From positions 6,326,001-6,390,000 of the forward strand of contig OZ076409.1 in NCBI GenBank assembly GCA_964187785.1: 64,000 nt of DNA, written 5' to 3'. Made by a program: the position numbers and the translations under genes. This document shows positions 21,158-43,947 of this stretch, piece after piece; position 1 is the first letter of the stretch, and each line of letters starts with the position of its first letter. The notes under the pieces are model-generated. The model saw nothing but the letters and a program-made list of their open reading frames with translations, was not told where the DNA came from and searched no databases. The DNA comes from Amphiscolops sp. MND2022 (Eukaryota).

Positions 21158-21817
21158 GTAAATTTGCAGTACAATAGCGTTTTAAAATATCGCAACCTCA
21201 TTGCTTAAAATTGCAAATTTCAAATCTAAATATCTTCAAAACTGCCACGAATACGAAGACAGCTAGGAAAGTTTTCAAGAATTTTATCTAGTTTACAAAA
21301 ATTTTTGTGTGAATTTTCTGCAACCAAAATTACGAAAATTAGAAATTGAAAATTTTTACAAAATTTAATTAAATTTGCGCTGTTCTATTTCTTGGTATGA
21401 TAAGAAAACAATAGAGTTTATTTAAAAGCTTCTTTTCTGAACATAAATACTGTCAATTGTACGATCTATTCTCTAACTACGTATCGTATCCAAATGATGC
21501 GATCTCAGTACAAAGTATGATGTTTACAAACATATAAACATATGTATAAATAGGTGTCTATGAGAATGATCTAAAGTTTGGTGATTGACAGTGTCAACCG
21601 AAAGGATCGGTTCGGTATATGTACCGTATTACATTTCCTCCCTTCTAAATTCCTTTCGGTCACTGCTTCGAGGTTCCCGGTGTTGGGGTCTTTTCTCGAA
21701 TGAAGTCGGCTGGTTTCGTTAATGGTTTTGGCGGGTCTTTTCGGCTGTTCCATTTCTCGGTGAAACCTGTAACAATTTTACTTCTTCAACGTTATACCCA
21801 AAAATGCTTTGTATAGG

Positions 21818-23494
21818 TGTGATAATCCTCTATTTCTGCTTCTGAATCTTCGTCAGAATGTATAGTTACGTCTACGTCTGATTCACTTCGAAACAGAGGT
21901 TTCGCAGGATGCTTAAAGTCCTTCATTTTAGAAGCCCTAAGAGGATAATCGTCGCTTTCAGAATCTGAATTTTGTTTATTAGATGCGTGAACTCCTATAG
22001 GCGGGTCTATCCTGGATCCCGATGGTTGTGGTTCTTGTATTTCATTTGCTTCAGATCTTGGATTTGTTGTTATTGAAGCACTTTTATTGCATTTTATCTC
22101 TTTTAGAATTGCTTCTAGTTTACTGTCCATTTCTTCTCTCATTCTCTCTATCCTTTCTGTATTTTTCCGTTCAACGATCTGAGTCCAAACTTGTATCTCA
22201 TCACTATTTTGACTGGGTTCTCTTAGTTGGTTTTCAAGGTTCGGTTCACTTAGATTTTCTTGGACATTTAGATTAGAATTAGTTTAAGTTATATTACCTG
22301 TTTCTGAAGAATCAACTCTAGTTTCGCTCACTTCTCTCTCAGGAGATGGGGTTGCTAGTCTCCTTGATCTTCGGCTTCTTTTATTTCCCATTTCACTTAG
22401 CAGAAAACGAGTTATGTTTGCTGGGGAAGAATTTGAATTATGTTCTCAGTATGGAAAAGTCCAAACTTTGGAAAACAATGAAAACTGATGGTATTTGCAA
22501 GAGTCTGGATAAATTGATACAACTGAACTTCAGGAGGGTTATTTCAATTGTGTCTTGCATTTAGGAAACCCCCTCTTCAAAATATAAAAAGAATGACAGT
22601 CATTTTTACAAGTATCATGTAGTCCTGGAAAACACGAAAATAGGATAACGTCAAATCACGTAATTCTATTTATATCGCTCCCACAATAATGCAAATGCGT
22701 CTAGTCATCCTTAAAACCCTAAAGAAAATACTGTAAAATGATATAATAAGCACCCCAAATGCTATTTGATAATGTACAATTGCATGACGTTCAAAACTAC
22801 ACATTTAGCTGAAAACCGCATAACTCCGCATATACTTTGTACCCGAATTCGTAGGGTGACGTATAACACACGTGAACGTTTTCCTCACGTCTGGTTAGTA
22901 GTGTATATACAGCACAATGCGATACGCACAATATTTTGATCAAAAACGTATGTTAACGTATGTTCGTCACTGCGGGAATCGTATAGTGACGTATACTATG
23001 AATGATGGAAAAGCATATTACCGTATACCCTGATAGTTTAAAAACGTATCTTTATGCATATTCAAAAAACGTATAACACCGCATACTCAAAAATCAGTTC
23101 ACGCATAATGGTGTATGCTCATAAAGCCATTTTATGTATAATGACGCATCCTTGTTAATTGAAAAGTGTCTAATGACGTATGTCCCCAGTTCTAATTGTA
23201 GCATGATTACGCATAATGTGGAATCAGAAGTCACAGATTGATCTTGCTTATGTAGTTTTTAAGCACATGTTACTTTTATGAATGAAATTCTGATGAATTT
23301 GACATCACTGAAGGGTTCAGAAAATATCCTAGAATGAAATTCATCAATGGAGAGAAACAAATAATCAGCATCATAATATAAAAATACCATCAACATGAGA
23401 ATTAATCGGAGTTTAAAATGTTTTGTTATCAGGTCTTTCAGGTGTTCCTTTCACTGTTGCACAACGGAACCATCGCACCTCGAGGGATGCGACA
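21818..23494 (-). repeat. Gypsy-C 3' LTR
   Basis: Direct repeat of 36815-38491. Confidence 0.95.
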
Positions 23495-24479
23495 GTCCCG
23501 CATTTTTGAAAAGGAACAACGCTGCTTCGAAGCCATGGATAAATGCCCTTGATCGGATTGTCCTTTCCTTGACTGTTTCCCCCTCATATTCCGTTGCAAC
23601 CAAATATTCGCCTAGTGTCTCTAGCGCGATCTGGTCGTAACATTTTCCGCATAGGTCGCAAAAACCGGCAACATTTGGCATTACCGTGGGTATCAGTCTG
23701 ATACCATGTCTCTCTTGGGCGGGGATTAGCTGGGAGTTCATGCTGTGAGTCATGTTGAATGGGAATCCCAACTGAATCGCTGGCTGCACCAGTTGTGTCA
23801 TATGTTGGGTCCCATGGCTCGTTCCGCTAAAATTAAGAGGGAACAGCATCGGGGATAAATTGAACCCCGTGAAATTTGTTTGTGCCGTTCCTTGTTGTGG
23901 AGCTATATCATTTCGTACCTCTTGCTCCATTGGCACACTTGTCTGTTGTTGCTGGAAATCAGTCAATTCCTGCCTGTAATTTGGCGGGTATACCGGGGTA
24001 GGAGGAGGCAAGAACCCCCTGTCGCCAGGACTTGTCCTTGGATTTGGTGGGACCCTAGCTGTAGGACGACCATAGTTGTTAGTAGTCCTTTCAGGCCCGT
24101 TGCTTATGGTCCATGGAAAAAGGTTTGCTTCTTCAAACTCGCTATCTATAAATGAGTTCGGCGAGTCCATTAATTCGTTCTGAGGAGTTCCGATCAGGTC
24201 CATTAGTTCCCTTTCCAATTGGGTGCCAGACGTGATTGCCGTAAAGTCTTGCCTTGACGATGACTCCGTGTCAGGGTACAGGGTAGCTGCTGCAGCTCCC
24301 ATAAACGCTGACATTAAGTTGCTCCCTGTCGTGTCTATACGGAATCTTTCGTCGAGTTGAGCAATGTCTCCGGGTGCAATGGAGAAATCACCTTCAGACC
24401 CGCTCGAAATATCCACCACGTCGGGAGATATAGGAGAATATAGCGAATCTTCATCAATATCAAACTGAAGTTTGTTCAT
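23451..24479 (-). CDS. Gypsy-C accessory ORF, 342 aa, unknown function
   Basis: Intact ATG ORF. Acidic then P/Q-rich N-terminus, C-terminal CDLCGKC plus helical segment. Ends inside the 3' LTR. Confidence 0.75.
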   Translation of the reverse strand: MNKLQFDIDEDSLYSPISPDVVDISSGSEGDFSIAPGDIAQLDERFRIDTTGSNLMSAFMGAAAATLYPDTESSSRQDFTAITSGTQLERELMDLIGTPQNELMDSPNSFIDSEFEEANLFPWTISNGPERTTNNYGRPTARVPPNPRTSPGDRGFLPPPTPVYPPNYRQELTDFQQQQTSVPMEQEVRNDIAPQQGTAQTNFTGFNLSPMLFPLNFSGTSHGTQHMTQLVQPAIQLGFPFNMTHSMNSQLIPAQERHGIRLIPTVMPNVAGFCDLCGKCYDQIALETLGEYLVATEYEGETVKERTIRSRAFIHGFEAALFLFKNAGLSHPSRCDGSVVQQ

Positions 24480-25435
24480 TTTTGATTTGCAAAGAGATTA
24501 TTCAGTGATTTAGATTTTCAAAACTTTTACAAAGCAACTGATTTATAAAGTTGTAAAGACCATATGGTGAATCTTCTCTTCAGTTTCACCTGATTTTGAC
24601 AAAACCCGCCAAAAAAGTTGGGTGTCATGGTTGCTTGGGTTTGACAAAGCCTTATAGAGGATGGGGATGGCGGGTTGCCATATAAATGAGGGGTTAAGTT
24701 TTGATATCTTCCATAAAGGTAAATAAACAAAATGAGCATAGGTTCATCTGCCTTATCTTTCATCGGCAGCTTCCTTTTGATGTTCCTAGTTTCGTTTCAG
24801 TTACATTTAAATATGATGTAAACAAAGATCATCACCTAAGAATCCACAGGAATGAGTGAATTAATTGCCGAATATAATTTTATCTAGAAGCATCAATGAA
24901 ACTCATATCAATAAAAAACATATTACATGACTATTTAAATGTTTCATCATGTTTGAAATCACATGATCGAACCATGGTAAATCAATTATTGTCCTGCATT
25001 TGAAGAATGCACAATCTTCTATGGTGGGAATGAAGGGGAGACCCTCGCGACTAGGTAGATTGTTAGGAATCCGTTCGTTAGGGTTAACTCAGTGTATATT
25101 ACCACTGTATGTATTGCTACAGACGCCGCCATGCTTTCTCTTTTCTCCAAAATAAGTCAGGTTGTTTATACGTTAATGTCAGAATCCGTATACTACCGCT
25201 TGTTCACCATCGTTCAATGTAATTAGCGACATGGATTTGTCCGCTTCAAATCGGTGTCATGCTACATATCCAATTCTAATGATTACGTAACATCCAATTT
25301 CCTCTCTCTTTCATTTTGCATATTGGCACGTGCTTCTCTCTTAATTTCACATAGTGTCGCGTAGACTACATTCATATTTCCGCGTATTGCCGCGTGTTTG
25401 TAAGTTGCAAATACGCATTCTGCCGCACATCATTC

Positions 25436-25810
25436 GTTTGTGGATCCGCATATATACTCATAATCCCAATTGTAAATCCGCATACTGTTGTATATTGTCC
25501 ATCTATAAATCCGTATAATCACGCATAATCATAATTGAGAGTCCGCATGTTACTGTATATTGTTCATCTGTAAATCCGTATAACCACGCATGATTACAAA
25601 TGTAAATCCGCATATTGCTGTAACTTGTTCATCTGTAAATCCGTATAACCACGCTTGATTACAAATGTAAATCCGCATATTGCTGTAACTTGTTCATCTG
25701 TAAATCCGTATAATCACGCATGATTACACACGTGAGTCCGCATGTTGCCGTATATGGTTCTTCCGTATATCTGTATAATCACGCATGATTACACACGTGA
25801 GTTCGCATAT
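25436..25810. repeat. 65-bp tandem repeat (~5.5 copies) between the divergent accessory genes
   Basis: Unit ATCTGTAAATCCGTATAACCACGCATGATTACAAATGTAAATCCGCATATTGCTGTAACTTGTTC at 25501, 25566, 25631 and 25696. Confidence 0.9.
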
Positions 25811-26243
25811 TTGCGCTCATTTGATACTATCGTCTCGTAAGTTAACACTTATACGCATACCACAAATCTGTGAATTGCCGCAGGTTTGTTTGTTTTCATT
25901 CTTCCGCGTGATGTTGTAATGTCAATTACGTAATCAGACATTCTGGCAGAAGTGACTGACATATTAATTGGCCAATCAGAACGAAGTATTCCATATACTT
26001 TGGTACAAACTTTGTATACATTTGCTCTTTGCCTTTTGTCCCGTCAAGCCACGCCTTTCAATTTTGTTATATCGAAGACTTTCCATTGTATTATATATTC
26101 ATAACATCTTTATTTTTCAGTCAGTTTTACAGTTTACAGAACTTGTTTCTCACTTCCCATCCCAGGATTCTTCCCAGATAGTTTTCCTTTTATTTGTATC
26201 CCCATCGCTCGACAGTGGTAATTGATTTGAACTCAGTTCATCA

Positions 26244-29200
26244 ATGGAAAGCAGCAGGAGTCGGAAGATTGATCGTGAGGACGTTCCAAGGATGCGGACC
26301 AGGTCTTGGGGACACAAATCCCCAGCTACTTCTTCACCCCGTAAGTTCGAATTTGTTTATTAGTTTCAGTTTAGAGTTTCTGTGAGAAAATAGCTGGCCA
26401 GGCTAAAACCTCAAGATTTTCAGATCAATGCATGCTTTTGATCATAATTTGATTTTCGAAAGTTTCTACACTTCCGGTTTCATGTTCATTCGACTTCCGC
26501 TTCCGTGTATTTTCTTTTACAGTTTAATACGGACTTGTTAGACGGTTTAGTCGCATTTGATTCATTACTTTATCGTTGAATAAAGCATATGTTTCAGTCG
26601 AACTTGGAGCTACAATCAAGTCGCCTACCCAGTCACCTACAAAGATATATACTCCTCTGCAGGTCGTCTCACCCAGCCATTCCGAACCCTCGATTTATAG
26701 TATTCCCCTACCAGCTGATCTTCCTCTGAACCACGCGAGGGAAGATATTGAACAACTTCTCTCCGAATCAGGCGGCCTAACGACTGACACAACCATGGAT
26801 GAGGAAACGGTGACCCAAACCTCACTTCTTAACCTCATGCAATTAGTTGAACAAGAACAACCACCAGAGACTCCACTGGCTGATGATGATGACACCCCTA
26901 GTGATGCTGCTGATCAGGATATAGATGAAAACATTGAGCCTCCAATTTTCGGAACCTTTTCTCCTCGTTATAGCCAATTTTTGACTGCTGAATTACGAGC
27001 CGCCATTTCTCAACCCAATACTCCCCCCGTAGAACATAGTCAGACACACAATGTCGATCCTACGTTAACTTTACCGCGCCAAATTTTGAGTGAGGGAATT
27101 AAGGAGGTTCCAACCGGGTCTGGACTCAATATTAACATTACGCAAAATGAAGTAGCGATTTTGAGAAACGTCTTGGATCGGATACCACAGTCCCTTTTGG
27201 TCAGGAGCACAGATGAGCCCAATCCGGAATTTTCAGTATCTGTGGTCGCGAACCCCCCTGTACCGGTTTTCAGTCCCACCCGTAATCCCGAACCAGGAGT
27301 GGGAACAAGTGAACGTCCGCTCAGAGATATTACTGAGTATGAGGAAGAAGATTCGTCTGCTAGACCCGCCAAGCGCCCAAGACCACGATACTGTCTCACT
27401 GAAGCCATGTTCAGGAAACATCCTGTTCTGAAATTTTTCGCAACAGGGCCAATAGACCGCGAAAAGACACCATATAAGTGGTGGTGTAGGGTCTGTCGGG
27501 TTGAATTGTCCCTCATGAGCCGCGGCCCACTCGAACTGTTGTCGCATTACAAAACTGAATCACACCTCTTGAAGGAACACCGAATTAGAATGGAGACGCC
27601 TGGCCTACCATTATATGACAGGGAAGAGATGGAGTTACAAGGAATTGCTCTACAGGAAGCTAAGCGATCGGCTAAAGACATGCACCCCATCGCCCCACAA
27701 CGTGACTTATGTCGATTACTTGTTGGACAAGAAAAACTCCCTGAGCTTAGAAGTGATTCTACGCCGATTGATGTCGTATTGTCCCAGATACGGGTTCTTG
27801 AACTTGGACTCAAACACGGGGGCAATGTTGCGAGTTTGGTAGCAATACACGACGAGATACTGCAACACTCAGCCGGAGGAAGTGCAATCCAGACCCTCGA
27901 TTGGAGTGATTCGCGAATTTTTGTTAGTATTTATTGCATTTATTATAGAATTATACCTCTGACAGCATGGCATGATTTAATGAGATAAGAATATCCAAAC
28001 TCTAATTCCTATTGACATCACTCAATCATTAGTTTTTGTTTCAGGGGATGTTGGTGTACATGTTTCGCGAGCTTGTCAATTATTGTGTTACCCATATTGG
28101 CTCGTCTCAGAATTACTCTTTGTCTTTGTATCGGACCCCAACCAAAATTCTGCTCTTCATTAGCTTTTGGTCTGGAAATGTTTACCAGCGAGTCTGTATC
28201 GGGGCAGGGCCAAGAGGAGTGTTAGTTCCAAGGAAACTACTCGACTTGTTATCTTCTTTCATTACCCTCTTTCAAGCGCCGCCAACTTGTGTGACTCTTA
28301 TTGGCATGTGTGAAAGACTCAATGTAAGCCTTACTGCAACACTACCTGGTAGCTTCCGGCCTAGTACAGTCAACAGTTTTGGACCGAATGAGTTTGAGAA
28401 GTGTCTATCACTTCCTACTGCCAGGATAATAGAGAGGCATGATTTTCGGACCATAATCGATTTTTTGTTGACAAAGTTACGAACTGCCCTTGATCGTGAC
28501 TGGTTACAGTCCTTGCCACTACTACACAAGGTAAGATATTTCCCGTCTCTTCTAATAGTTGATTGATTTTTGTAGTTTCCACATCATAAAAATTTCTTTA
28601 CAGGCAGTACTCAGTCTCGAGTATACTCTAGTTGAAGCTTCCTCCCTGATCGAGTGTTTTTCTTCCAACTGGGACAGAATCAGAGATCATCTGACCCAAG
28701 TTTCTCGATTGCCGGCATATCGCTTCCATATGAAAGAAGTACGTAACTCTCATTGCTGGATTTTACATTTGTAAGACTTTTGTTTTAATTTCGATTTTCG
28801 TTCTAGCCCAGCGCGCTCGACGAATGCTTTCGCCTGGATACGGCTTATCTAGCTCGATTATTTGTCATCCGTTGCATCATCGACAATTGTTAGTACAACC
28901 TCATCATTTTCACTCCTTTAGCACTATTTCGCTAGTTCCATTCCATTTTCGCTATCATCCAGTTCCATTTTTGTCTCCATCTTTTAAAAGATTTTGGTCT
29001 TTAAAACTCGCTGAAAAACTCCAATTTCTATTTCAACAATAGATTACTCTGTGTTTCTTCTTTATGAGGCCATAGAGGATATTTCCACGTGCTTTCAATT
29101 ATTTCCGCATAATCACGCACATGCAGTTTACCATAATCCGTCTAATGACGTATATATGTGCTAATACCCCACGTCCGCTGACACACAGTTTAGATTCATA

Positions 29201-30656
29201 ATCCGCCTAGGGACGTTCCTACGTCATTCGGGATTCCGCATAGTGACGCATTATCCATATTCAATTTCCGCATGATAGCGCAGTGCTTCATGCTTGGTTT
29301 CGTGAAGTGACGTAGTGCTGAGAATCATTTTCTGCATAGTGACGTAGTACATTATACTAAATTCCGCATATTAACGTATTGTTGAGAATCATTTTCCGCA
29401 TAGTGACGCATATGCGCCACTGAAGGTTCCGCAATGTCACATATCTTTAGCTTCAGCTTCCGTATGATGACGTGTAATCTCGATCACTAATTCTGCATCG
29501 AAGTGTATTTCTCATTCAAAGGATGATCCATCTTCATGCGATATGTTTTGTTTTAGACACTTCCGCGTTTTCCGATTTGCAGAGCCATCTCGACCAAGGA
29601 TTCAGAATCTTTAACCAGTTTTCTGTATTTATATACAGTCAGTTACAGCTGATATTGCCAGATAGTTTTCTCGGGGATATTTCTGAATGGGATTCCTACT
29701 TGAAGGTTGACCTGACACAGACTGATCTTCCTTTCAAGACCCCCGCAGATTTCATTCTGAACCCGGATTACCACCATTTGATTACTTCCAGCCGTTTACC
29801 ACGTCCTAGCAAGTTTGTGGAGCAATCAATGGCGTTCTGCAAATCTTTCTGTGGTGTACTTTTATCCCACAACATTTTGAAATCACCTCTGATTCGTGGT
29901 TTATCTTCTTTTGATAGCGCTGTCATGTTAGATGGGCCTGAGCGTCATTACATAGCCGCTATAGAAGATCTCACAAGCTATTTTGTATCTTCCAGTTTGA
30001 TTACTCCTGGGGACAAAACCAAATGTGTCAGTCAGTATCGATCATTGGTGACCAAATTCCGTACTGCTAGTGACGTCCCGAGAGGTGATTGGGTTCTATT
30101 CCTTGGGGCTTATTACGAGATGCAGAGCCGACCGGAACTTTCTAGTGTGTTTCGGTATGCCAGTCTATGTTTACCGCCAACTGTTACGATGCCAACTTCC
30201 TTCAAGATTTCAGTCCCAGATCTTGCTTCCGACCAAGAGGTGTTCCAGTCCGTAGTCAGCAGTTTGCAGCTTTCATATGTCACCGTTCCCAACGTTTCTA
30301 GTCTTTACCAGGATCCTCGATCCGTTTATCGTATATTTCGTTTGTTGGGGCGGGGACGGGAGTTGCTCAGTGACAAAAAGTTTTCTGTTTGGACCTTTTC
30401 ACGTGGCAGTGTACCTAAACGGCTTGCCTTACGAGAAAAAATGGAGACTGCGTATAAAAAGACAGTTTTACATGGTGAAGGATTGCCTATCTTTTTGGAT
30501 GTGTCTTCACCAAGTGGTAGTGCTCCTTCTAGTAGCAACAGTTCTCCGCTTCCTGGTCCTTCTCTGGGGCTCGTTTCTGTGAGTGTCGCTCGTTGTGGTG
30601 AGGCAGAGGTAAACAATGACAAGACCAAGAAGAAAACCAAGGCTAAGAAGTCTTGA
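26244..30656 (+). CDS. Six-exon antisense gene of Gypsy-C, ~1074 aa, BED-like zinc finger / hAT-transposase-derived protein
   Basis: Exons 26244-26340, 26598-27922, 28045-28530, 28604-28738, 28807-28888, 29557-30656. All five introns are GT-AG with matching phases (1,0,0,0,1), giving 3225 nt open. WWCRVC-x16-H-x5-H. NLS-like RPAKRPRPR and KKKTKAKKS. Confidence 0.8.
29095..29480. repeat. Degenerate TTCCGCATAGTGACGYA motif array in intron 5
   Basis: About ten copies spaced roughly 30-45 bp. Same motif family as in the 65-bp array and the LTRs. Confidence 0.75.
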
Positions 30657-30851: not shown

Positions 30852-33800
30852 TTAGTATCTATAGGAGTCTGAGTAGTTTGGGTTAGGGTTGGGGCGTAAG
30901 TTGTATTTTTCACCACGAGTATTTATGGGTTCTTCTTGCAATGGAGTTTTTTGTGAGTTTTCTGGAGTATTTTGAATGTCGTTCACTGGTGAATTTTCGA
31001 TATCTTTTTGGGTTTTTTGGGTAATTTGGGCATCCTCTCCACTTTGTTGTGGACTTTCATTTTCATGATTTTCATTTGGTTCAGTGGTCTGTTCCACTGG
31101 GCTCCCCTCACTACTTTTTGGAAATTTGGGGGAGGGAGGGTGGTTATTTTCAGGTACTTCAACAGGTATGTATTCGATATCATCAGTATTTTGTGTATGA
31201 TCTGGAGGGCTATCCTCAAATGGGTTAGGTCCAAAATTTGTATTCCATGATTGGGCATATAAGTCATCATGAGCTACTGGCATCTGATCATCTTTTTGCC
31301 AATCAGTTTCGCGAACGAAAATGTCTGCTAATGGCGCTTGCGGGGTAAATTTCCGTGAACGGATCCTGTGTAGTAATTGCGTTTTGTTAGTTCCAAGTCT
31401 CCGAACAATATAATTATTGTTAGGGAGTACTTTTTCTATTTTATATGGACCACACCATCTGAATTCTCGGAATGGTATTTTTGTCGCTTGAGTATCTGCT
31501 TTTGGGTTAAGAATATAACAATAGTCCGTCGTTTCAAGCGGAGCTGCTTTGGCTTTTCGATCATAGTAAGCTTTGTATTTGAGGTACGATTGCATAATGT
31601 TCTTCTTAGTTTGATCCAAGAGGATTTTCATTCGTTTTTGAATTTCTTCTGCCACATCTGACTGTGGTTGGTATCGTGGGTTAGGGTTATATCCGAGTTT
31701 GTAGTCGAGGATATTATGTGGTATTCTACCATGGAAAACTCGTGAAGGTTCACAGCCGAGTGATGCATGGTATGTTGTATTGTGGTTGAGGACTGCCAGT
31801 GGGAGATATTTATGCCAATTATTTCTGAATTCGCCTGTTGCAGCTTTCAGATGTGTTTTCACTGAGGCATGGGTTCTCTCGAGGAGTCCTATTGTTTGGG
31901 CATGTTTCATTGTGGCATGTTTAAGTTCAATTCCTAGCACTGCTGCAGTTTCGTGAGTCACCTGTGCGTTGAACTGGGTTCCTAAATCCGTGATTATTGT
32001 CGTTGGTAGGTAGGTGTGTTTGCATAATATATCCATGACGACTCTTGATACTGCTGTTGCAGTGATACGAGTTACGGGATATGCGAACAAATACCTCGAG
32101 AAAACATCTATGGCTGTGATAATATGGTCATATCCTCCGCTCGGGAGGGAGGTTTGGTAGGATGTCCATCTGTAGGATGTCTTCCGGACCTAGATCCCAT
32201 TCTGGACAATTAAGGAGTTCTGTCCTTAGGAGGTCATTGTTAATACGTTTGGTTTGGATGCAGGTTTGACAGTTACTGCCCCACTTTTTTATGTACTTTG
32301 CCATACAAGGATAGTAATATTTTTGTCTTGCTTCTTGTATCATTTTCGTGATACCTGGGTGGTTTGAATTATGGCCATGTAGGGCTTGGAGGAATTCGTC
32401 TACGAGTTGAATCGGAAGGAGAATTTGGTAATGTTATACTGTTCCAGTATCCGTATAGTATTTCCTGGTCAGGACTTCTTGTTTTATCTCAATCCGTGTT
32501 ATGTTTTGCAGATAGTGGTGGTATCGGTAGTCAGATGCTAAATCGTTTTCGTCAAAGGGTTCGCCCTCTATTTTCGCTCTGAGATTTCTGAGAACAATGT
32601 CATTATTTTGTTCGAGGCGAATCCTTGCATTGTCTCTGAAGTATCCTGATGATACCGAGATCAAACCCGATGTGGGTTTGTGGAAATGTTGTAGTTCAGA
32701 GATGTCATTTTCTGGTTCGTTGTGGGTTTCAGTTTGAGCTTGTGTACGTACATTTTGTTTTTCTTCCCAAAGTTGATTCTCGTCTATTTCATCATCGGGG
32801 AGAATGTAGATTTGTTCTTCTTCTACGATACCTGATGATTGGATGTTGACTTCTATTGCCTTTGTGTAGATGTCATCGCGGATAGTCATTTCTAGCTTTT
32901 CTTTTGGGTTTACTTCTGTTCTGGATAAAAAATCTGCTGCAGTGTTCAAGGAACCAGCAACGTGGGCAATGACAAAATTATATTGCAATACATAATCGCA
33001 GGCGTTCCAGAGTGCTGGAGGAATCATTTTTGTTTGAAAGAATCGGGTTACCGAGCGATTGTCAGTAAACACGATTACCGGGAAGGTGTTGCCCCACATC
33101 AGGTGTCCAAATTCCACAAATGCGAAGTGTATGGAAAGGAATTCTTTTGCGTAGATTGACATCTTGGTTTGTGAGGGATTGAATGTTTTGGATCCAAACG
33201 CTATGGGTGCATAGGTTTTTCGTTTGGATTGTAACGTCTGGTTCGGGTCATCTTCTATCATGATTGCATAGCCCGCCGCAGTAAAACTAGCATCAGACAT
33301 GACTATGAGCTGTTTGTGTTTTAGTGGTTATTTCAGTGCCAGTTGGCAGCAATTTTCGAGAAGTTTGTTTAAGCTTGCAAAGTCGTCGACTAAATTTGTT
33401 GGTACATAGAACTTGGAAGTTTCTTTGAGGAGTTTGAAAAACGGGGTTAGACGTTCTGAGAGGCGAGGAATGTAGTTTCGGTAATAATTCAAAAATCCGA
33501 TATACCTTTGTAATGCCTTTTTTGATTTAGGAAAACGAAGCTTTGAGAGGAAGTCTTTAACCTTGTCGGCTTGTGGGGCGACTCCATCTGGGGTGATTGT
33601 ACGACCCAGAAAGTCGACTTGTTTGACTCCGAAATGACATCTAGACATTGAGAGTTTTAATCCTGCGTTGCGGATGCATTCAAACACTGTTTTGATGTTA
33701 AGACACAATTGTTTGGTGTCGTTGGCTGCTATGCCTATGTCATCGACATATTGGGCACATTGGTCTGCTTTAATCGCTTTGTCTAGGTAGTCTCTCATGA

Positions 33801-35706
33801 AACTCGAAAATGCTGAAAGGGATCTGCTGAGACCCTGGGCAAGCCTACGGTATGCGAATGTTCTGCTTGCAAAGTTAAAAGCGAGCATTTGTATGGACTG
33901 ATAATCTGCCATTTGGAGGCAGTGGTAAGCCTGGGAGCAGACTAGTTTACAGAAAAGTTTTTTCCCCGCCATATGTTGGGCTGCATCCGATAATGTGCTT
34001 ACCGGGTGGTTGTTGTTGGCGTAATCTTCTGTGATTAAGTTGTTGATTTTTCGTAGGTCGACTAGAAGTCTGAGCCGCCCGTTAGGTTTGCGTTGTGCAA
34101 AGAATGGGCTTGCGTATTTTGAGAAGGGTAGAGTTGTTATGATGCCATACTTGTGTAGAAGTGCGAGTTCTACAGTGATATCATCTTTGAGGGTAATTGG
34201 AGTCGGTAGACTTTGGCTATAAGCAGGTCTGTCATCGTTGGGTGTGAGTTTTACTTTGAATTCGCGATTTATGCCAATATCAAAACGATGTCTGGCAAAA
34301 ATATCGTGAAACTCAATGAGGATTTCTTCAATTGCTTTGCGTTCATCTGAGGTGAGTGTTGTGTCAGACCAATCGAAGTGTGAGAGAAATGCTGTTCTGG
34401 AGGTTTCACTATCATGTGGGTTTAGTTTCTCGAGTTCTTTGAGTTCGAGAAGTTCATTATATATACGTTGCTGAATTGGGGTGTATGTTGTAGGGTCGCC
34501 TGGTTCTTCAGGTGTAGGGAACCAGTATGTTTCTTGGTCTGAATGTTGTTGTGGTACTTTAAGGAGTTCATTTATGTGGACTTCAGTTGTTTCCTCATAT
34601 TGTATCATGAAGGATAGTAACGCTGGATCAACTGGTTGTATATGTTTGATTTGTTCTGGGGTTAGTATCTTAAAATCTGCTAAATGGGTATCCATTGTGA
34701 TTGTATGGGGCAGTTCTGAAAAGTTGATAATTTGATAACCGATAGCATTGTTGTTAACAGTACTGAGTGATGCAGTAATGAAAATGCTATCATGATTTTC
34801 GTATTGTTGTGATGGGGTAACTATGCCAGTGGCATTATGGTCCATTAGGTGAGGCATTCTGCTTGCTATTGCAAGGGTTTCGCCTGGTTGTAATGTGTAA
34901 GTGTTTTCGGCAAATAATGGTGTTGCTTGGCGTATTGCTGTTTGGGTATCGGGTTTAAGTTGCATTGACAGGTAGGGAAATGTTAAGATGCCTTGGTTGA
35001 CATCGAAAATTGCATTGTTTCTGCGGAGGAAGCACAGTCCTATCAGTGGGTTCGGTAGATTTTTCATGATGATGAAATTTTCTTTTAACATGAAATCAGC
35101 CACTTCGAATTCCAGTAGTACCGTACCAATGGGGACTTCTAGTTGTCCATTTTCCACCATGATTTGGAAGTTTGGTGGGGGACCAGTTTCTTTAATTGCT
35201 TCGTTTGCTAACAACTTTATTTTATTAAGATCTTGTTCGGAGATCGCACTTGTAAGGGCTCCGGTATCAATAAGACCATCAAGTGTAAGCTTTTCGAAGT
35301 CCATTGGGATATAGTACATATGGCGTTTTCGTTTTAATGTCAAAGAGGTTGAGATCGGAAGATATGACAAATTTCGTTCCTTGTCAAATTGTATGTGTTC
35401 GGTGAGGTCTTCATTGAGAAGAGGTTGTTTTTCATCATTGCCAGAAGTTTTAATTAGGACATAATTTTTTGGTGATTGTGGGGATTCTGGGGTTGAGTCA
35501 GTTGTGGGACAGGTTGGTTGTTGTGTAAAGTAGTTGTCTGGTGCGTCATGTAAGAGTTCATATATATCTTCAGGTTGAGTTTCTTGTGTTGTGGAATCAT
35601 TTTTGTTGTTTATGATTTTTGTAGATTTTGGGCTCGGCTGATGCTGCCAGACATCTGCAGGGCTTAATTTTTGTAGTGGGTTTTTGCAAAGGCGTGGCGA
35701 TTCTAG
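30852..35706 (-). pseudogene. pol: Gypsy-C pol (PR, dUTPase-like spacer, RT, RNase H, IN), -1 frame to gag
   Basis: LIDTGA, YVDD, SDASF, integrase HHCC and D..D..E, GPY. Stops at 33328 and 32434, frameshift at ~32140. The first RT Asp position reads Val (KLVCSQAY). Confidence 0.93.
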
Positions 35707-37388
35707 TTTAAATCCTTCGAAGTGGATTGTTGTGGGCGTTCGATTTTTGGTTTTATTGGTTTTCGAGCTTGTTTGTATTCTTCAATAACTTTCTTTTGGG
35801 CGTCGGTGAGATTCCACTTAGGTGGGCGATTTTCCATGTTGGCGCCAAAGTAGCAATTTTCTTCCTCGTGACCTGGTGTGTTGCAGTTTTCACACTTTGC
35901 CGCATCCGGGTCTTCTTCAAGTTTTCGTCGTTTTGCTAGTTTGGGGCAATCGGCCATCATATGTCCTGCCTCTTTGCAATAACGGCATTGGTTATTTTTG
36001 AGTGTTTTGTCAGGTACTGTTTTAGGCGTTTGTTTTTTGGTTTTTTCGTTCGGTTTTTTGTTAGTCTTCTCAGTGTTTTGCTCTTTTTTAGTAGCGGTCA
36101 TTTGGGTTTTAACTAGGGGTTCATCTGCTTCGAGACCGTTAAGTTCCATCTCTCTTTCGAGATGTTTAACTATCTGATCGTATGTTCCATTTTCGAGGTA
36201 GGCTTGGTTTATGGACTTTTTGAGATGTGGGGGCATTTTTGCGTAAAGTAGATTCTCTATCATTTGATGGGCGTTGTCCCCAAACGCTTTCTCGGCACTT
36301 TTTTGGAGTTCTTCCAGGAAATCCGGGAGTTTTTGGTTCTCTGGGTCAAATGAGAGTCTGTTGAATCGATGCTTGGCAGATGCGCTAGACTCTGGTTTGA
36401 CGTATTTTCTGCGGAAGACCTTTAGAATATCATCTAAGGTTGTATTTGGGGTTCTTTGTAAGTTTTTGAATGTTTTGAGAGCCAAACCTCTTAGATGTGC
36501 GTGAAAATGGTTGATTTTCATTTCCTCTGTTAGGTTTGGTTGCATTCGAAGTGTTGTGTGGAATAAGTCTTCAAAGTATTCGAATTTCTCATTTTTCTCA
36601 TTTTTCCCATTGAAGGTGAGTGTATTTTTAGGATGAAATAATGACTGTGGAGAATTTTTGTTTGCCAATTTTTCGATTGCTAATGCAATCTGATTTACTG
36701 GATCGAGAGGCTTCGGTGTCATATTCGACGAGTTTTGGTCTGCGCGGGATCCTAATGTGTCGTTTAGCTTCTGTGAGCTTTGTCTATGGAGTTGTCGGTT
36801 GGCTCCTGTCACCATGTGATAATCCTCTATTTCTGCTTCTGAGTCTTCGTCAGAATGTATAGTTACGTCTACGTCTGATTCACTTCGAAACAGAGGTTTC
36901 GCAGGATGCTTAAAGTCCTTCATTTTAGAAGCCCTAAGAGGATAATCGTCGCTTTCAGAATCTGAATTTTCTTTATTAGATGCGTGAACTCCTATAGGCG
37001 GGTCTATCCTGGATCCCGATGGTTGTGGTTCTTGTATTTCATTTGCTTCAGATCTTGGATTTGTTGTTATTGAAGCACTTTTATTGCATTTTATCTCTTT
37101 TAGAATTGCTTCTAGTTAACTGTCCATTTCTTCTCTCATTCTCTCTATCCTTTCTGTCTTTTTCCGTTCAACGATCTGAGTCCAAACTTGTATCTCATCA
37201 CTAATTTGACTGGGTTCTCTTAGTTGGTTTTCAAGGTTCGGTTCACTTAGATTTTCTTGGACATTTAGATTAGAATTAGTTAAAGTTATATTACCTGTTT
37301 CTGAAGAATCAACTCTAGTTTCGCTCACTTCTCTCTAAGGAGATGGGGTTGCTAGTCTCCTTGATCTTCGGCTTCTTTTATTTCCCAT
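35703..37388 (-). pseudogene. gag: Gypsy-C gag (~561 codons, starts inside the LTR, two stops in this copy)
   Basis: ATG at 37388 (MGNKRSRRSRR) is in frame with ORFs 37116-37328 and 35703-36923. Two CCHC knuckles (CRYCKEAGHMMADC, CENCNTPGHEEENC). Both stops are sense codons in the 3' LTR copy. Confidence 0.88.
35706..35712 (-). promoter_or_regulatory. -1 ribosomal frameshift slippery site T TTA AAC
   Basis: XXXYYYZ heptamer directly before the gag TAG. The -1 frame is open from here into the protease. Confidence 0.8.
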
Positions 37389-38491
37389 TTCACTTAGCAG
37401 AAAACGAGTTATGTTTGCTGGGGAAGAATTTGAATTATGTTCTCAGTATGGAAAAGTCCAAACTTTGGAAAACAATGAAAACTGATGGTATTTGCAAGAG
37501 TCTGGAGAAGTTGATACAACTGCACTTCAGGAGGGTTATTTCAATTGTGTCTTGCATTTAGGAAATCCCCTCTTCAAAATATAAAAAGAATGACAGTCAT
37601 TTTTACAAGTATCATGTAGTCCTGGAAAACACGAAAATAGGATAACGTCAAATCACGTAATTCTATTTATATCGCTCCCACAATAATGCAAATGCGTCTA
37701 GTCATCATTAAAACCCTAAAGAAAATACTGTAAAATGATATAATAAGCACCCCAAATGCTATTTGATAAAGTACAATTGCATGACGTTCAAAACTACACA
37801 TTTAGCTGAAAACCGCATAAATCCGCATATACTTTGTACCCGAATTCGTAGGGTGACGTATAACACACGTGAACGTTTTCCTCACGTCTGGTTAGTAGTG
37901 TATATACAGCACAATGCGATACGCACAATATTTTGATCAAAAACGTATGTTAACGTATGTTCGTCACTGCGGGAATCGTATAGTGACGTATACTATGAAT
38001 GATGGAAAAGCATATTACCGTATACCCTGATAGTTTAAAAACGTATCTTTATGCATATTCAAAAAACGTATAACACCGCATACTCAAAAATCAGTTCACG
38101 CATAATGGTGTATGCTCAGAAAGCCATTTTATGTATAATGACGCATCCTTGTTAATTGAAAAGTGTCTAATGACGTATGTCCACAGTTCTAATTGTAGCA
38201 TGATTACGCATAATGTGGAATCAGAAGTCACAGATTGATCTTGCTTATGTAGTTTTTAAGCACATGTTACTTTTATGAATGAAATTCTGATGAATTTGAC
38301 ATCACTGAAGGGTTCAGAAAATATCCTAGAATGAAATTCATCAATGGAGAGAAACAAATAATCAGCATCATAATATAAAAATACCATCAACATGAGAATT
38401 AATCGGAGTTTAAAATGTTTTGTTATCAGGTCTTTCAGGTGTTCCTTTCACTGTTGCACAACGGAACCATCGCACCTCGAGGGATGCGACA
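36815..38491 (-). repeat. Gypsy-C 5' LTR
   Basis: Ends CA immediately before the PBS TGG on the minus strand. Confidence 0.95.
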
Positions 38492-38496
38492 ATAGG

Positions 38497-39651: not shown

Positions 39652-40714
39652 CCAGTTGTTGGCGCCAGTCATCCGAAGGCAAAGAAACGCGATTCAGAAC
39701 ATGCTGAGTGAGAAACAAGACTTAAACTCTTAAAAACTTACATGGAAATTTGAAGAAATTCCAATCATCACAAAATCGGCGAAACCCCCCCCCCCCCGTC
39801 GAAGTTTTCTCGACGACTATAAGTCATTGAGCCACGAAACTTGGCACACATATGCAGGTACGTAACACAAACACACCGGCTAAATTTCAAGGTCATCCAC
39901 CTATAATAACCCCCTTTACCCCTCACATGTGTAGTATTCAAGGTGATTGAGACAAAAATGTAAACATTGCTAATTACCCCTATGACCACATCAGATTGTC
40001 ACTCTGTTGCAATTGATGATATTTACATTGTGTAAACATGCTTTAGAGCCCACCTAACCAACATGCTATACCCACAGTATGGTTTGTTTACATAGCCTAT
40101 AACTTTAATAATTCACTTGAATGTCGTTTATTTATACCACATATTTTAACTTATATTCGCTCTAAATTTACTGTAGAATTGTAAACGATATGTATACCAT
40201 TATTAGATAGAGATTTTCTCCACTGAATAGCTATGGTCAAGTTGGGTCTCAGGACCAAGAGACTAATTAATCAACTTCTCATTCTTGACAACTTTTCGCT
40301 AGAGTCAGAGCGACTAAGTAGCTACTCTCATAGTTGGAGAGCCGGAGCGCGTGAAGATACAGTGAGGGAAGTGTGTTCAGGATCACATCGGATCCAATTC
40401 AGTGCAAAGCGGAATCGCAGGAGATTCCACAGGTCACATCGGACCCGTGGTGTCAAAAGATACAGTCCTTTAAACAAGAAAACCAGGAATTGTTTAGTGA
40501 CGGTCCACAGCACTAAGCAACGGATCAGGGCGGCGTAAAGTTTGTCAAGCCTCAGCGCAGAATAAGGGCAAGCAGCCGTTACATTTGGTCCGCTGACCCG
40601 GACAATTCGTTGGTCCGCCCACCCGGACGACTCGTTGGTGGACGATCCGGACTAGAAGAAGACGACTCGTTGGTGGACAACTGAGAAGATTGCCCAAGAA
40701 GAACAAGTGTCTGG

Positions 40715-40875
40715 ATCTTGGAGTCTCTGAGTTTGTGTCTCTGGGAGATTGGGCTACAGTGTCTCTGGGAGATTGGGCTACTGTGTCTCTGGGAGATTGG
40801 GCTATTGTGACTCTGGGTGTTTGGACTATAGTGACTCTGGAGTTGGGAATAATGTGTTCTCTGGGAGTTGGGCTT
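40715..40875. repeat. 24-bp minisatellite in the BEL 5' UTR
   Basis: GTGTCTCTGGGAGATTGGGCTAC(A/T) and variants, ~6 copies. Confidence 0.8.
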
Positions 40876-41413
40876 TAGCGGCACTCTGGAGGTATTTGTG
40901 CATCAATTCTAGTTTTGAGACGAATTGTATTCTTTGGGAACGTATTCCTGATTGAAGCAAAGATCTGGTCTAAGACGTCATTGCAAAAAAATCCACCAAG
41001 TAAAGCCAAGGGATCAAGTCAGAGGGACAAGATCCACCGAAACAATCAAGTTCGTCAAACAAGGCAAGTATAATCGACAGTATTGGGTTGATTCTTCAAG
41101 AATTGGCGATTGATTACCGGATTGAGCAGTTGACACTTTGTATCTGAGAAATTGCAGAATTCGGAAAAGTGACAAAGCCTACAAGAAACAATTGCGAAGT
41201 TCGAAAGCCCTCAGTGGAACAAAAGAGTCATATGAACAAATGAAAGCCAAAAAGAAAGAAAGGCAAGTGATGCAGCACCCTCGAATGACAAATGTGTTTG
41301 AAGGAAGAAACACAAAGCAGAGCCAACAACTGATGGAAATCAGACCAAAAGATTTGGAAAATGTGTCAGATTGGTAGCCATGGAGCCTCTATTGGAATAC
41401 TGTACCCCTACAT

Positions 41414-43384
41414 GTGGAAAAGCTCCATACGTTAGTAAAAGACTTGGATGACAAGCTCGATGAGGAAAGAGCTGTTGTATCCAAAAGAAACTTGATTGAT
41501 TGGGTAATTGAATACCGCGAGAGAAGACAGGCGTTGCTGTTCTGTGTAGACTTTATGTTGAGTCTTACAAATGAAGAAACGCAAAGACAGCTCAGTCGAA
41601 GTGTGACTGAATGGGACGAATGCTTTGCGAAACTGGAATCGAGTTGGGGATATTGGTTCCCCGATGTGCAGCAAATGTTGAAGTGTCCAATTGATGGGAA
41701 AAAAGAGTTGAAACTGAGTCAGATGACAAATGGAACATCTGCCGACGCAGCTATGAGATGCCCTCGCACAAGAAAGTTGAGGCAAAGACGTGTCCAACAG
41801 GCAAAACATAATTGTGTAAAGAAAACAGCTAATGAAAAGGAATCACTGAAACGGTCAAGAAGGACCAATGACCAAGCAAGTTGCTGTGTTATGAGAGACA
41901 GCATATCAGAATGGGAAAACTCAATCAACGTTGTGACATCACTACTCGAAGAAAACAGTAAGGTGTCTGACGTAACAATCCAGATGGACAACAGAACAAC
42001 AGTTAACACGAAGCGGTCTAATGGAGATCGACTGGTTCCTCTAGCATTAGAGAAAGCGGAAGACCAGAAATCGGGTGAAGTCCAAGGCCAAAGAAGCGAG
42101 ACTGGACAATTGGAAATAGAGGAACTGGGCAAACATCCACAACTGGTTGAAACCAGAAGCAACAGAAGCTCAGTGATTTCGAAAAGTTCAAGTGCCAGAC
42201 GAGTTCTTTATTTGAAAGTAAAAGCTCAGAAAGAGCAAGAAGAACTGCAAATCCGACTCGAGAAACTAAAGCGTGAAGCAATACAAATGGAAATAGCTGA
42301 CTTGCATGAACAGCTTGCCCGCAAAGCCAGAATAGCTGAAAAGGAAAGAGAAATAGCGGAAGTGTCGAGCAGTCAGGGGACTAGCTTCCCAAGTGTCTCA
42401 TCAGTCGACAGATTCACGGAGGACTCAAGATCCATGGTTGAGACAGAAACAGTCGAAGACGGGGCTAAGTCCAATTTTGCACTATCAGTTCATTCGAAAT
42501 CAGAGAATGCAGTGAAATTAGTTCACGAAGGAAAATTCTCCGCGCTTAGGAGAGACTCAAAACCTCCCACAGAAGCCGATGAGCAAGCTGATCGGAACGA
42601 CAGAACCAGAACCAATGCTGATAACGGAACATGCAGACAAGGAGCAACAACACAACCAGACGTGAAAGTTGCAAACAAAGGAACCTCGAAGTTCCTCACA
42701 GCGGAATGCATACAGAACTGGTCAAAAACATTCATTGTAGACAACAGTCGGCAAGACGTCCGTTCAGAAACCCTCCTCATGGATACGAAACAGGTTTTGG
42801 AAGAAAAGGATCACATGTTCATGAGTCAGCAATCAATAGTGCAAACAGAGGAGATCTTGAAGTTCACATTGACGGAAACAAGGAAGGAGCATAGATTCTT
42901 ATCATTCGCATCTAGCAAGCAAACTTTGGGAGAATCGAGTGTCCAACTTGAACTGCTGCAAGACAGTGAAGAAAATACCGCCGTACAACAGGACATACAA
43001 CAAGGGAAAATATTCGAAGTGACGATGTTTCATGACAGTACTCTACTTCTTGAAGAAGGAAACAATTGTTTTGAATTCGACAAAAGTTATGTCTTTGTGC
43101 ATGAGCAACAGTTTGCACTGCTTAATGATTGTAATGAAGAAGCAATGTATCGAAAGCTATGCCATGTTGCAGCGAAACATGACAAACCCGTTGAATGCAA
43201 TGCCAAAGGTGAAACAGGTACCATGATTGCAACCTTTGGAAAGAAATTTGATTTTGACTTCAAAGTAAGCCTTGTAGAAGAAACTATCCGAGTAATAACG
43301 ATATGTGGAACCCTCGGATTGGAAATGGAAACTCTGGGATGGACGCCGTGGCACAAGCTAATGGCATGGATAAAATTCAATTGA
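41414..43384 (+). CDS. BEL/Pao gag-like ORF, 656 aa
   Basis: Long open frame. Ser-rich then coiled-coil segment (RSNRSSVISKSSSARR..EQEELQIRLEKLKRE) typical of BEL gag. No RT motif. Confidence 0.6.
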   Translation: MEKLHTLVKDLDDKLDEERAVVSKRNLIDWVIEYRERRQALLFCVDFMLSLTNEETQRQLSRSVTEWDECFAKLESSWGYWFPDVQQMLKCPIDGKKELKLSQMTNGTSADAAMRCPRTRKLRQRRVQQAKHNCVKKTANEKESLKRSRRTNDQASCCVMRDSISEWENSINVVTSLLEENSKVSDVTIQMDNRTTVNTKRSNGDRLVPLALEKAEDQKSGEVQGQRSETGQLEIEELGKHPQLVETRSNRSSVISKSSSARRVLYLKVKAQKEQEELQIRLEKLKREAIQMEIADLHEQLARKARIAEKEREIAEVSSSQGTSFPSVSSVDRFTEDSRSMVETETVEDGAKSNFALSVHSKSENAVKLVHEGKFSALRRDSKPPTEADEQADRNDRTRTNADNGTCRQGATTQPDVKVANKGTSKFLTAECIQNWSKTFIVDNSRQDVRSETLLMDTKQVLEEKDHMFMSQQSIVQTEEILKFTLTETRKEHRFLSFASSKQTLGESSVQLELLQDSEENTAVQQDIQQGKIFEVTMFHDSTLLLEEGNNCFEFDKSYVFVHEQQFALLNDCNEEAMYRKLCHVAAKHDKPVECNAKGETGTMIATFGKKFDFDFKVSLVEETIRVITICGTLGLEMETLGWTPWHKLMAWIKFN

Positions 43385-43947
43385 GCAAAGGCCACCGCAA
43401 GCGACCGAAGAAACAAGCTTGGAAGTTTGAACATAGCTCAAACCGATTACATGAAATGGTCGAAAGTGTTCAATTGACAACTGGCATCCTATATGCAAGG
43501 ATTGTGATAGATGAATTTCCAGACGAAATATCGCTAATGAAAACGCCATTAGGTTCTTCAAAAGCACGAACAACAACAAGTTCGGAAAATGGGCCTTGCA
43601 TAGGGCCGGCTGCAACATTGGAAGAAAAGATGATGCAACTTGAACCTTTGGGAAAATGGAACAAAGAAGACGTTCGACAACTGGGAGTCAATGATTTGGT
43701 TTGGGTAGTGGACGAGATGATAAAAAGAGCACACTACAAGATGGGTAGAGTGTTAGAAGTCTTTCATGGAAGCGATGGGCGAGTGAGATCAGCGCTGGTG
43801 AAAACGGAAGATGGAAAACTCAAAAGAACAGTAGTGAAACTGGCACCCATGTTCTACGAAAGTGTTTTTCGGGAGAAAAACAGGGCCGGCAATGTTGGCG
43901 CCAGTCATCAAAAGGCAAAGAAACGCGATTCAGAACATGTTGAGTGA
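43303..43947 (+). pseudogene. BEL/Pao integrase C-terminal remnant (DUF5641-like)
   Basis: KW..LGVNDLVWV..YKMGRVLEVFHGSDGRVRSALVKT..RTVVKLAP. Confidence 0.8.

Follow-up and report, generated by a model that had tools for sequence, protein, structure and literature searches.

Does an intact, intron-containing gene that lies antisense inside a retrotransposon belong to that element, and what could its product do there? The question is raised by a 64,000-nt stretch of DNA from Amphiscolops sp. MND2022 (assembly GCA_964187785.1, contig OZ076409.1, positions 6,326,001 to 6,390,000 of the forward strand; hereafter the window, with positions counted from its first letter), in which a 16.7-kb Ty3/gypsy long terminal repeat (LTR) element on the minus strand carries a six-exon gene on the plus strand. 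An earlier description made from the letters of the DNA (the sequence-only reading) saw in this gene a BED-like zinc finger on an apparently catalytically dead hAT transposase scaffold, which suggested a DNA-transposon protein domesticated by a retrotransposon. Here we describe the gene and its conservation, the element that carries it, the predicted folds of its product and the motif arrays around it. Our preferred reading, which we consider probable, is that it is an accessory gene of this Ty3/gypsy lineage encoding a transposase-derived, non-catalytic nuclear DNA-binding protein that acts on the element's own arrays; a hAT ancestry for this protein is a narrower claim and is graded separately below.

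The gene starts with an ATG in exon 1 (26244..26340, 97 nt), followed on the plus strand by exon 2 (26598..27922, 1325 nt), exon 3 (28045..28530, 162 amino acids (aa)), exon 4 (28604..28738, 45 aa), exon 5 (28807..28888, 82 nt) and exon 6 (29557..30656, 366 aa plus stop). All five introns are GT..AG with a pyrimidine tract before each AG, and joining the six exons in frame gives a coding sequence of 3225 nt, or exactly 1074 codons, whose sole stop is the terminal one, in agreement with the ~1074 aa product first proposed. The gene is thus intact, and lies antisense to the element, as had been claimed. From exon 2 come an acidic N-terminal region that evolves fast, a basic KRPRPRY stretch (27371-27391) resembling a nuclear localization signal (NLS) and a C-x2-C-x16-H-x5-H (CCHH) finger (27485-27565), which locates both the finger and the NLS-like motifs of the sequence-only reading. 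Exon 3 encodes a predicted RNase H-like core (strand 1 at 28111-28134), and exon 6 encodes an all-alpha domain, a conserved C-terminal segment and a tail that is Ser-rich and Lys-rich. No AATAAA or ATTAAA occurs within 250 nt past the stop.

This structure recurs across the genome. In the 1.07 Gb searched, the exon 2 DNA has 41 matches (69-100% identity) and the exon 6 protein at least 112 (54-100% identity), most of them open (6232 candidates). Twenty copies spanning the identity range were taken for comparison of structure along with the window copy, and the six exons stand in order in 20/20 of these diverged copies. Conservation of the splice sites, a check named beforehand, is nearly complete: with boundaries set from tblastn ends, the placeable donors are GT in 96/97 cases and the acceptors AG in 93/95 (the exceptions being one GA, one CG and one GG), while the start codon is ATG in 15 of the 16 copies where it can be placed. 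Among the 14 complete models (13 loci and the window; seven further loci were not fully modelled and lie outside this count), nine are uninterrupted, with products of 1073-1111 aa, and five have early stops. Taken singly, exon 6 is open in 21/21 copies and exon 3 in 19/21.

The ratio of nonsynonymous to synonymous substitution (dN/dS) between the window copy and a copy of subfamily B (L041) is 0.082 at a dS of 1.03 (Nei-Gojobori), so that the comparison across copies asked for by the sequence-only reading points to purifying selection. By region, the ratio is 0.15 over the N-terminal third and falls to 0.04-0.06 for the finger, exon 3, exons 4-5 and exon 6. In more distant pairs of subfamilies the synonymous sites are saturated, and amino-acid identity is still 50-63%. 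In none of the four pairs compared does the length of exon 1, 3, 4, 5 or 6 differ, while intron lengths vary, and the introns have a similarity of 0.65-0.70 versus 0.80-0.89 in the exons, with the exception of intron 1 (0.85). Given the shared layout, the kept splice sites and the low dN/dS, chance open reading frames (ORFs) and a decaying passenger are excluded as descriptions of the locus, and at the level of sequence comparison a real gene under purifying selection is confirmed.

The carrier shows the gag-protease-reverse transcriptase (RT)-RNase H-integrase order, the TG..CA LTR ends and the target-site duplication (TSD) of a Ty3/gypsy element. Its 5′ LTR (36815..38491, minus strand) and 3′ LTR (21818..23494, minus strand), each of 1677 bp with TG..CA ends, are 99.05% identical over 1677 bp (blastn), and identical 5-mers (TSD ATAGG, 5 bp) stand outside both of them, at 21813..21817 on the left and 38492-38496 on the right. 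The gag gene (35703..36814, minus strand) encodes a capsid-like region and a zinc knuckle (Pfam zf-CCHC, Ty3_capsid and Retrotrans_gag, all weak), and pol (30852..35781, minus strand) encodes protease, RT, RNase H and integrase (Pfam RVT_1, RT_RNaseH and rve). The pol of the window copy is broken by in-frame stops at 33328-33330 and 32434-32436 and by a frame change near 32128-32189, which contrasts with the 99% identical LTRs and with the intact state of both accessory genes, namely the antisense gene and ORF3 (see below).

The antisense gene occupies most of the 7.3 kb from the integrase stop (30852) to the 3′ LTR, and an antisense coding region between pol and the 3′ LTR is kept across copies, the integrase C-terminus standing tail-to-tail with exon 6 in 30/30 loci. 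The association extends to a deeply diverged clade of the gene (representative P0146), whose exon 6 is ~23% identical to that of the window as taken from blastp of the nearest listed relatives of P0146 (profile E-value 5e-15) and which has at least 104 matches in this genome (e.g. G000:C2:74539551-74540750). In the one copy of this clade that was checked (L064), the gene is followed by an opposite-strand gypsy integrase 46-53% identical to that of the window. To judge from these identities, the gene has long been a fixed part of this retroelement lineage, and its sequence changes more quickly than that of the integrase. Since it is fixed in every copy examined, the phrase "domesticated by a retrotransposon" fits the data as far as the retrotransposon is concerned, and the DNA-transposon (hAT) origin that went with it is not demonstrated.

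A DNA transposon nested in the LTR element was considered and rejected, as no terminal inverted repeats (TIRs) surround the gene and the gene is fixed within the LTR element in all copies checked. No inverted repeats flank it, and the TSD is that of the LTR element, of 5 bp and not the 8 bp that go with hAT TIRs. An intact DDE triad, flanking TIRs and an 8-bp TSD, which the sequence-only reading had listed as evidence that would speak against itself, were all looked for and none of the three was found. The presence of introns in a retroelement has an accepted explanation. Splicing cannot remove an intron that reads antisense in the genomic RNA, and such an intron survives reverse transcription; the five introns of this gene would be unspliceable in that RNA and would pass into the DNA copy, and they persist because this orientation prevents their removal before reverse transcription. 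This explanation, which the sequence-only reading had offered, is retained here as established logic, the gene being antisense to the element.

Around the gene lie two arrays of a 16-nt motif, TCCGCATARTSACGCA, which has 15 matches in the window at ≤3 mismatches against 0.84 expected, a number reached by 0/100 shuffles. Twelve of the 15 fall into two plus-strand clusters, five matches at 25510-25785 and seven at 29104-29410. The first cluster belongs to an upstream tandem array (25444..25811, plus strand) with a 65-bp unit repeated 5.7 times and a 32/33-bp sub-period according to Tandem Repeats Finder (TRF), and the second (29104..29410, plus strand) lies within intron 5 (28889-29556). In the motif survey, which covered 19 of the 21 copies (two were dropped because they have no 5′ boundary), all 19 have 2-7 matches upstream (72 in total) and 3-10 in intron 5 (121 in total), and in the same 19 copies no motif occurs in the exons, the other introns, the downstream sequence or the opposite strand. 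The arrays persist despite the saturation of synonymous sites between subfamilies, and TRF arrays of period 64/65 or 32/33 are present in 13/19 upstream regions. A 15-nt palindrome (AGTGACGCATATGCG / CGCATATGCGCCACT) lies at 29402-29421, at the end of the intron 5 array, and one near-perfect copy of the motif (1 mismatch) stands outside the element at 12729-12744 on the plus strand, beside a repeated unit.

Between the upstream array and exon 1, a candidate core promoter (25972..26098, plus strand) was found by pattern matching, with a CCAAT at 25972 and a TATA-like word at 26092, and these words putatively constitute the promoter of the gene. On the other side of the upstream array is ORF3 (23451..24497, minus strand, in the sense of the element; 348 aa), which ends 44 bp inside the 3′ LTR, so that a motif array lies between the antisense gene and the divergent ORF3. 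At least 117 places in the genome match ORF3 (57-100% identity), mostly with an open frame; for 28 of the first 30 matches to exon 6, an ORF3 match stands ~6 kb away in divergent orientation (compared by eye). Its sequence matches no Pfam family; it is Pro/Gln/Ser-rich, and no membrane segment is apparent by eye.

Sequence searches with the antisense gene returned its own relatives and no named family. Pfam gives no family for any exon ORF of the window, no consistent family at E≤10 for the members of three exon alignments searched one by one, and no match for 14 distant homologues. Searches of the Protein Data Bank (PDB) by phmmer and hmmsearch with exon 2 and alignments A1-A4 gave nothing other than endonuclease IV at E 2.1, which is noise, and a search for homologous proteins with exon 6, extended to longer sequences, found none. 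A profile search of 1.84 billion representatives yielded 293 hits, all unnamed ORFs of up to 420 aa without a Pfam domain. The near-homologue search with alignment A3 (177 hits, ≤283 aa) and the longer-homologue search with A2 (104 hits, ≤718 aa) likewise returned unnamed ORFs no longer than one exon and without a Pfam domain. One ORF in these collections matches a copy in this genome at 100% identity, and this species is the probable source of most homologues in the protein collections; contigs of 1.1-4.1 kb from MGnify, JGI or ENA supply five members of one cluster. Two scans of metagenomes for related loci found none.

The folds of the product were therefore addressed through structure prediction, with AlphaFold2 and fold searches run on single exons. 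The exon 3 model (130-row alignment) has a mean predicted local distance difference test (pLDDT) score of 62.8, with 74-80 over the sheet, and consists of a helix (2-21), three strands (23-30, 34-43 and 46-56), a helix (61-73), a strand (82-86), a helix (90-99) and, at the C-terminal end, a short strand followed by helices, which is overall an RNase H-like order. The best Foldseek rows (E 0.006-0.02) include an actin-like ATPase, the integrase cores of HIV and ASV, Argonaute PIWI, Mos1 and Hermes, and the highest query TM-score, 0.40 over 143 columns, is that of Hermes (4d1q_G). From this model an RNase H-like core of the transposase/integrase type is likely, and in this respect the exon 3 prediction has what a hAT protein should have. 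The exon 6 model (21-row alignment) is an all-alpha domain over residues 8-206 (29580-30176), with pLDDT of 75-96 over much of that range (block means up to 96) and low confidence elsewhere; to judge from the model, the low-confidence rest of exon 6, which is conserved, may need the rest of the protein to fold.

The catalytic residues were placed on the exon 3 model, so that their correspondence comes from a predicted structure and not from a residue-level alignment. At column 29 of strand 1, the usual site of the first carboxylate, 87 of the 123 sequences have Q, 11 have E and 25 have another residue; the neighbouring columns are S/A, L/V/F and H/S/R, and strand 1 contains no conserved acid in the 130-row alignment. 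Of the 130 sequences, 65 have G, 36 have D and 23 have N in the column after strand 4. The canonical first carboxylate is missing from the predicted core, and the DDE triad of an active hAT transposase is not intact, in agreement with the proposal of a catalytically dead scaffold that has lost its Asp. Conserved acids are present elsewhere in exon 3, at positions 77, 90, 116, 118, 130, 133, 139, 150 and 152. The block that had been likened to the hAT FSxxxDExTD motif does fall on strands 1-2 of the predicted RNase H-like fold, its hAT identity not being shown.

For the origin of the core, hAT is the best single candidate, with a likelihood that we place a little below even, and the pointers to it are weak. 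Both folded pieces have their longest structural alignment with Hermes (PDB 8edg, 4d1q and 8sjd), and the two alignments are colinear along the chain. Hermes is built of a finger, a linker, an RNase H-like core, a helical domain and a C-terminal segment, and the domain order here is the same. All named neighbours of exon 3 in the ESM Atlas are hAT-derived (FAM200/GTF2IRD2, ZBED5-like, ZMYM1-like and Dimer_Tnp_hAT clusters), at scores of 0.75-0.79 that serve as a lead only. In the finger, the CCHH spacing and the aromatic residues before the first Cys are invariant in 19/19 sequences, and hhalign sets it on the BED finger of real hATs, weakly (E 0.19, probability 0.3%).

Other evidence weighs against this assignment, and some of it against the broader transposase reading as well. 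The gene model was read from genomic DNA, and no sequence-based method ties the protein to any family. The fold scores are modest throughout. Foldseek against the PDB gives no match at E≤0.001 for the exon 3 or the exon 6 model, so the structural comparison with Hermes suggested by the sequence-only reading yielded long colinear alignments short of that threshold; retroviral integrase cores even score slightly higher than Hermes in the exon 3 search. No residue of the exon 3 model reaches a pLDDT of 90, its mean being the low value given above, and the RNase H core and the alpha insertion are seen in separate single-exon models, never in one. Position 90 of exon 3 is acidic in 113/130 sequences, so the core may retain some metal binding. 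An ESM Atlas score of 0.79 is one that shuffled proteins can still reach, and the Atlas gives no usable hit with exon 6. Pfam hAT families are found at E≤10 in 0/21 exon 6 and 0/19 exon 3 sequences, and Dimer_Tnp_hAT (PF05699) in 0/21 exon 6 sequences at the same threshold; the PF05699 model is blind to exon 6 yet finds at least 150 hAT copies in this genome. The zf-BED model matches 1/19 finger regions, at E 2.5. Finally, five hATs from the same genome served as comparators (all with Dimer_Tnp_hAT, and four also with DUF659, zf-BED or the Hermes DNA-binding domain), and hhalign of alignments A1, A2 and A4 and of a 91-row exon 6 alignment (Neff 5.1) against them gives probabilities of 0.06-0.3%.

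Of the original hAT proposal, then, the predicted RNase H-like fold stands for the scaffold while Pfam and hhalign (<1%) are silent on its family, and for the BED-like finger the invariant spacing stands without clear support from the zf-BED model or hhalign. The likeness of RPELSSVFRYASLCLP to the hAT dimerisation domain has no statistical support; hhalign of exon 6 with the hATs gives a probability of 0.06-0.1%. A search of the genome with DUF4371 gave no match, and since the control genomes are silent too this carries little weight. Several matches to the hAT C-terminal domain elsewhere in the genome lie within open frames of 597-697 aa.

The preferred reading can be put as a sequence of steps. 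The gene would be transcribed from its own promoter, from the strand opposite gag-pol, into a protein with, in order, an acidic N-terminal region, a basic NLS-like stretch, the CCHH finger, the RNase H-like core and the all-alpha domain, ending in the conserved C-terminal segment and the basic tail. The protein would enter the nucleus by means of its basic stretches and bind DNA through the finger, and perhaps also through the transposase-like body, without cutting it. It would recognize the TCCGCATARTSACGCA arrays upstream of the promoter and in intron 5, and through this binding it would govern transcription from the internal stretch that separates the gene from the divergent ORF3. In this chain we infer the hAT ancestry, the loss of catalysis, the array binding and the regulatory role. 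A more specific version, drawn by analogy with the recognition of subterminal repeats by hATs, holds that a hAT-like DNA-transposon protein was recruited as the site-specific factor of the element and controls an internal bidirectional promoter or chromatin; this version is tentative and on the doubtful side.

Several other explanations bear on the origin of the protein. The RNase H-like core could be real and belong to something other than hAT, either a retroviral-type integrase (e.g. an old inverted duplicate of the integrase core of the element itself) or another DDE superfamily such as Mutator/IS256. The integrase alignments cover 76-82 residues (strands 1-5), compared with 98-129 for Hermes and ISCth4, which include the helix before strand 1; only Hermes is also longest on the exon 6 helical domain and colinear; the named ESM Atlas neighbours are hAT-derived and not integrases; and Pfam rve is found in the element's own integrase and not in the exon ORFs. 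With these points set beside the slightly better fold scores of the integrase cores, a non-hAT core appears unlikely. It is more unlikely still that the RNase H-like fold is an artefact of folding a 162-residue fragment and that the product is an orphan nuclear protein with a zinc finger, not descended from a transposase. That the locus is no functional gene at all, being made of chance frames or of a recently transduced fragment of a host gene, is extremely improbable: the gene is known from genome sequence alone and the pol of the window copy is broken, and against this stand a dN/dS of 0.08 at a dS of ~1, the retention of splice sites and exon lengths between subfamilies whose synonymous sites are saturated, and the presence of the gene beside the integrase even in the clade with ~23% identity in exon 6.

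A further alternative concerns the arrays, which may be unrelated to the encoded protein, and this is a quite realistic possibility, if one that we would not put at even chances. They could be sites for a host transcription factor, forming an internal enhancer and promoter for the gene and ORF3: positions between divergent genes and within an intron are typical of enhancers, and the motif contains a TGACGCA/TGACGTA core which we take to resemble bZIP half-sites. They could also be a signal for RNA export or packaging, the motif acting as its reverse complement in the genomic RNA between pol and the 3′ LTR; the strict polarity of the motif, with 193/193 matches on one strand, is in keeping with this. 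On the other side, a search of the element against Rfam gave no match to a known RNA family. Either version touches the cis-elements only and leaves the reading of the gene itself, as an accessory gene with a transposase-like, non-catalytic product, unchanged.

The accessory gene read in this way can be compared with several known systems. Host-domesticated hAT proteins are generally described as non-catalytic, and those nearest to exon 3 by language-model features (the ZBED5-like, GTF2IRD2, FAM200 and ZMYM1-like clusters, whose Atlas entries carry hAT-derived Pfam families) share with the product described here an N-terminal zinc finger followed by an RNase H-like scaffold. They differ from it in being single-copy host genes, whereas the gene in the window is a multicopy retrotransposon gene, with no Pfam hAT domain and no hhalign signal.

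The closest parallel in layout is the plant Ty3/gypsy element Retand, which has antisense coding regions and tandem-repeat arrays between pol and the 3′ LTR; a "Transposase 28" domain (TRP28, PF04195), whose function is not known, is encoded by 97% of its clusters, and a DNA-binding regulatory role is proposed, not shown, for its antisense ORFs (PMC11963269). The element in the window is like Retand, as described there, in its long region between pol and the 3′ LTR with a conserved antisense coding region and with repeat arrays, a frequent trait of Retand. It is unlike Retand in its host, which appears to be an animal, its five introns, its much larger product and its predicted RNase H-like core; the word "intron" does not occur in the main text of that paper (PMC11963269), and Pfam scans of the exon ORFs and alignments find no PF04195.

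In fungi, the Boty-like Ty3/gypsy elements of Botrytis cinerea carry an additional antisense gene, brtn (Zhao et al. 2011, Virology 417:248, cited in PMC8365987). The resemblance is that of an extra antisense gene in a gypsy-type element; brtn is reported to encode a small, cysteine-rich fungal protein, while the gene in the window has six exons and encodes 1074 aa with a CCHH finger and a transposase-like core. Deltaretroviruses (HTLV-1 and relatives) also have a regulatory-type gene opposite the gag-pol strand, as mentioned in PMC11963269, in another genome position and another host group and with no known relation in sequence or structure to the gene in the window. The function of such additional antisense ORFs is not known according to the reviews cited in PMC8220671. 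Bdelloid rotifer LTR elements capture extra ORFs, and the paper on them uses "antisense" of small RNAs only (PMC5408684). Among animal LTR elements, searches of open-access full texts brought up neither a spliced antisense gene nor a hAT-like one. The layout is already known, and what is new, as far as checked, is the combination of an animal host, a six-exon gene for a 1074-aa transposase-like product, paired arrays and the companion ORF3.

The remainder of the window is a nest of retroelements, including BEL/Pao-type sequence recognized by DUF5641; BEL/Pao elements are confined to animals, and the host was taken for an animal on this ground. Two 189-aa ORFs (4659-5228 and 10761-11330) and further ORFs at 5786-6649 and 12092-12715 have no Pfam match. 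Direct repeats of ~550 bp at 39657-40210 and 43893-44439, which are 94-96% identical and 4.23 kb apart, enclose a 668-aa ORF without a Pfam match (41378-43384) and an ORF with DUF5641 (BEL/Pao-type, 43258-43947), and this repeat pair (39657-44439) is probably a short or truncated LTR element. Two more gypsy-type elements are present on the minus strand, at 44808-48617 and 58233-62702, the second with an uninterrupted gag-pol ORF of 1489 aa (zinc knuckle, RT, RNase H and integrase).

Antisense accessory genes of LTR retrotransposons have been documented in plants and fungi. The gene described here offers a tractable case, being large, intact and multi-intron, under strong purifying selection and present in hundreds of copies with deep divergence, and coming with a predicted transposase-like core and a conserved candidate binding motif in two arrays. 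The protein collections searched show it only as unnamed single-exon ORFs. For annotation, it means that a gene with introns may form an integral part of a retroelement, and that such genes should be neither masked nor broken up into separate ORFs. If the protein binds the arrays, the case would reveal how a retroelement can supply a regulator of its own, and the recruitment of a DNA-transposon protein by this Ty3/gypsy lineage, if true, would be a clear case of one class of transposon taking up the protein of another.

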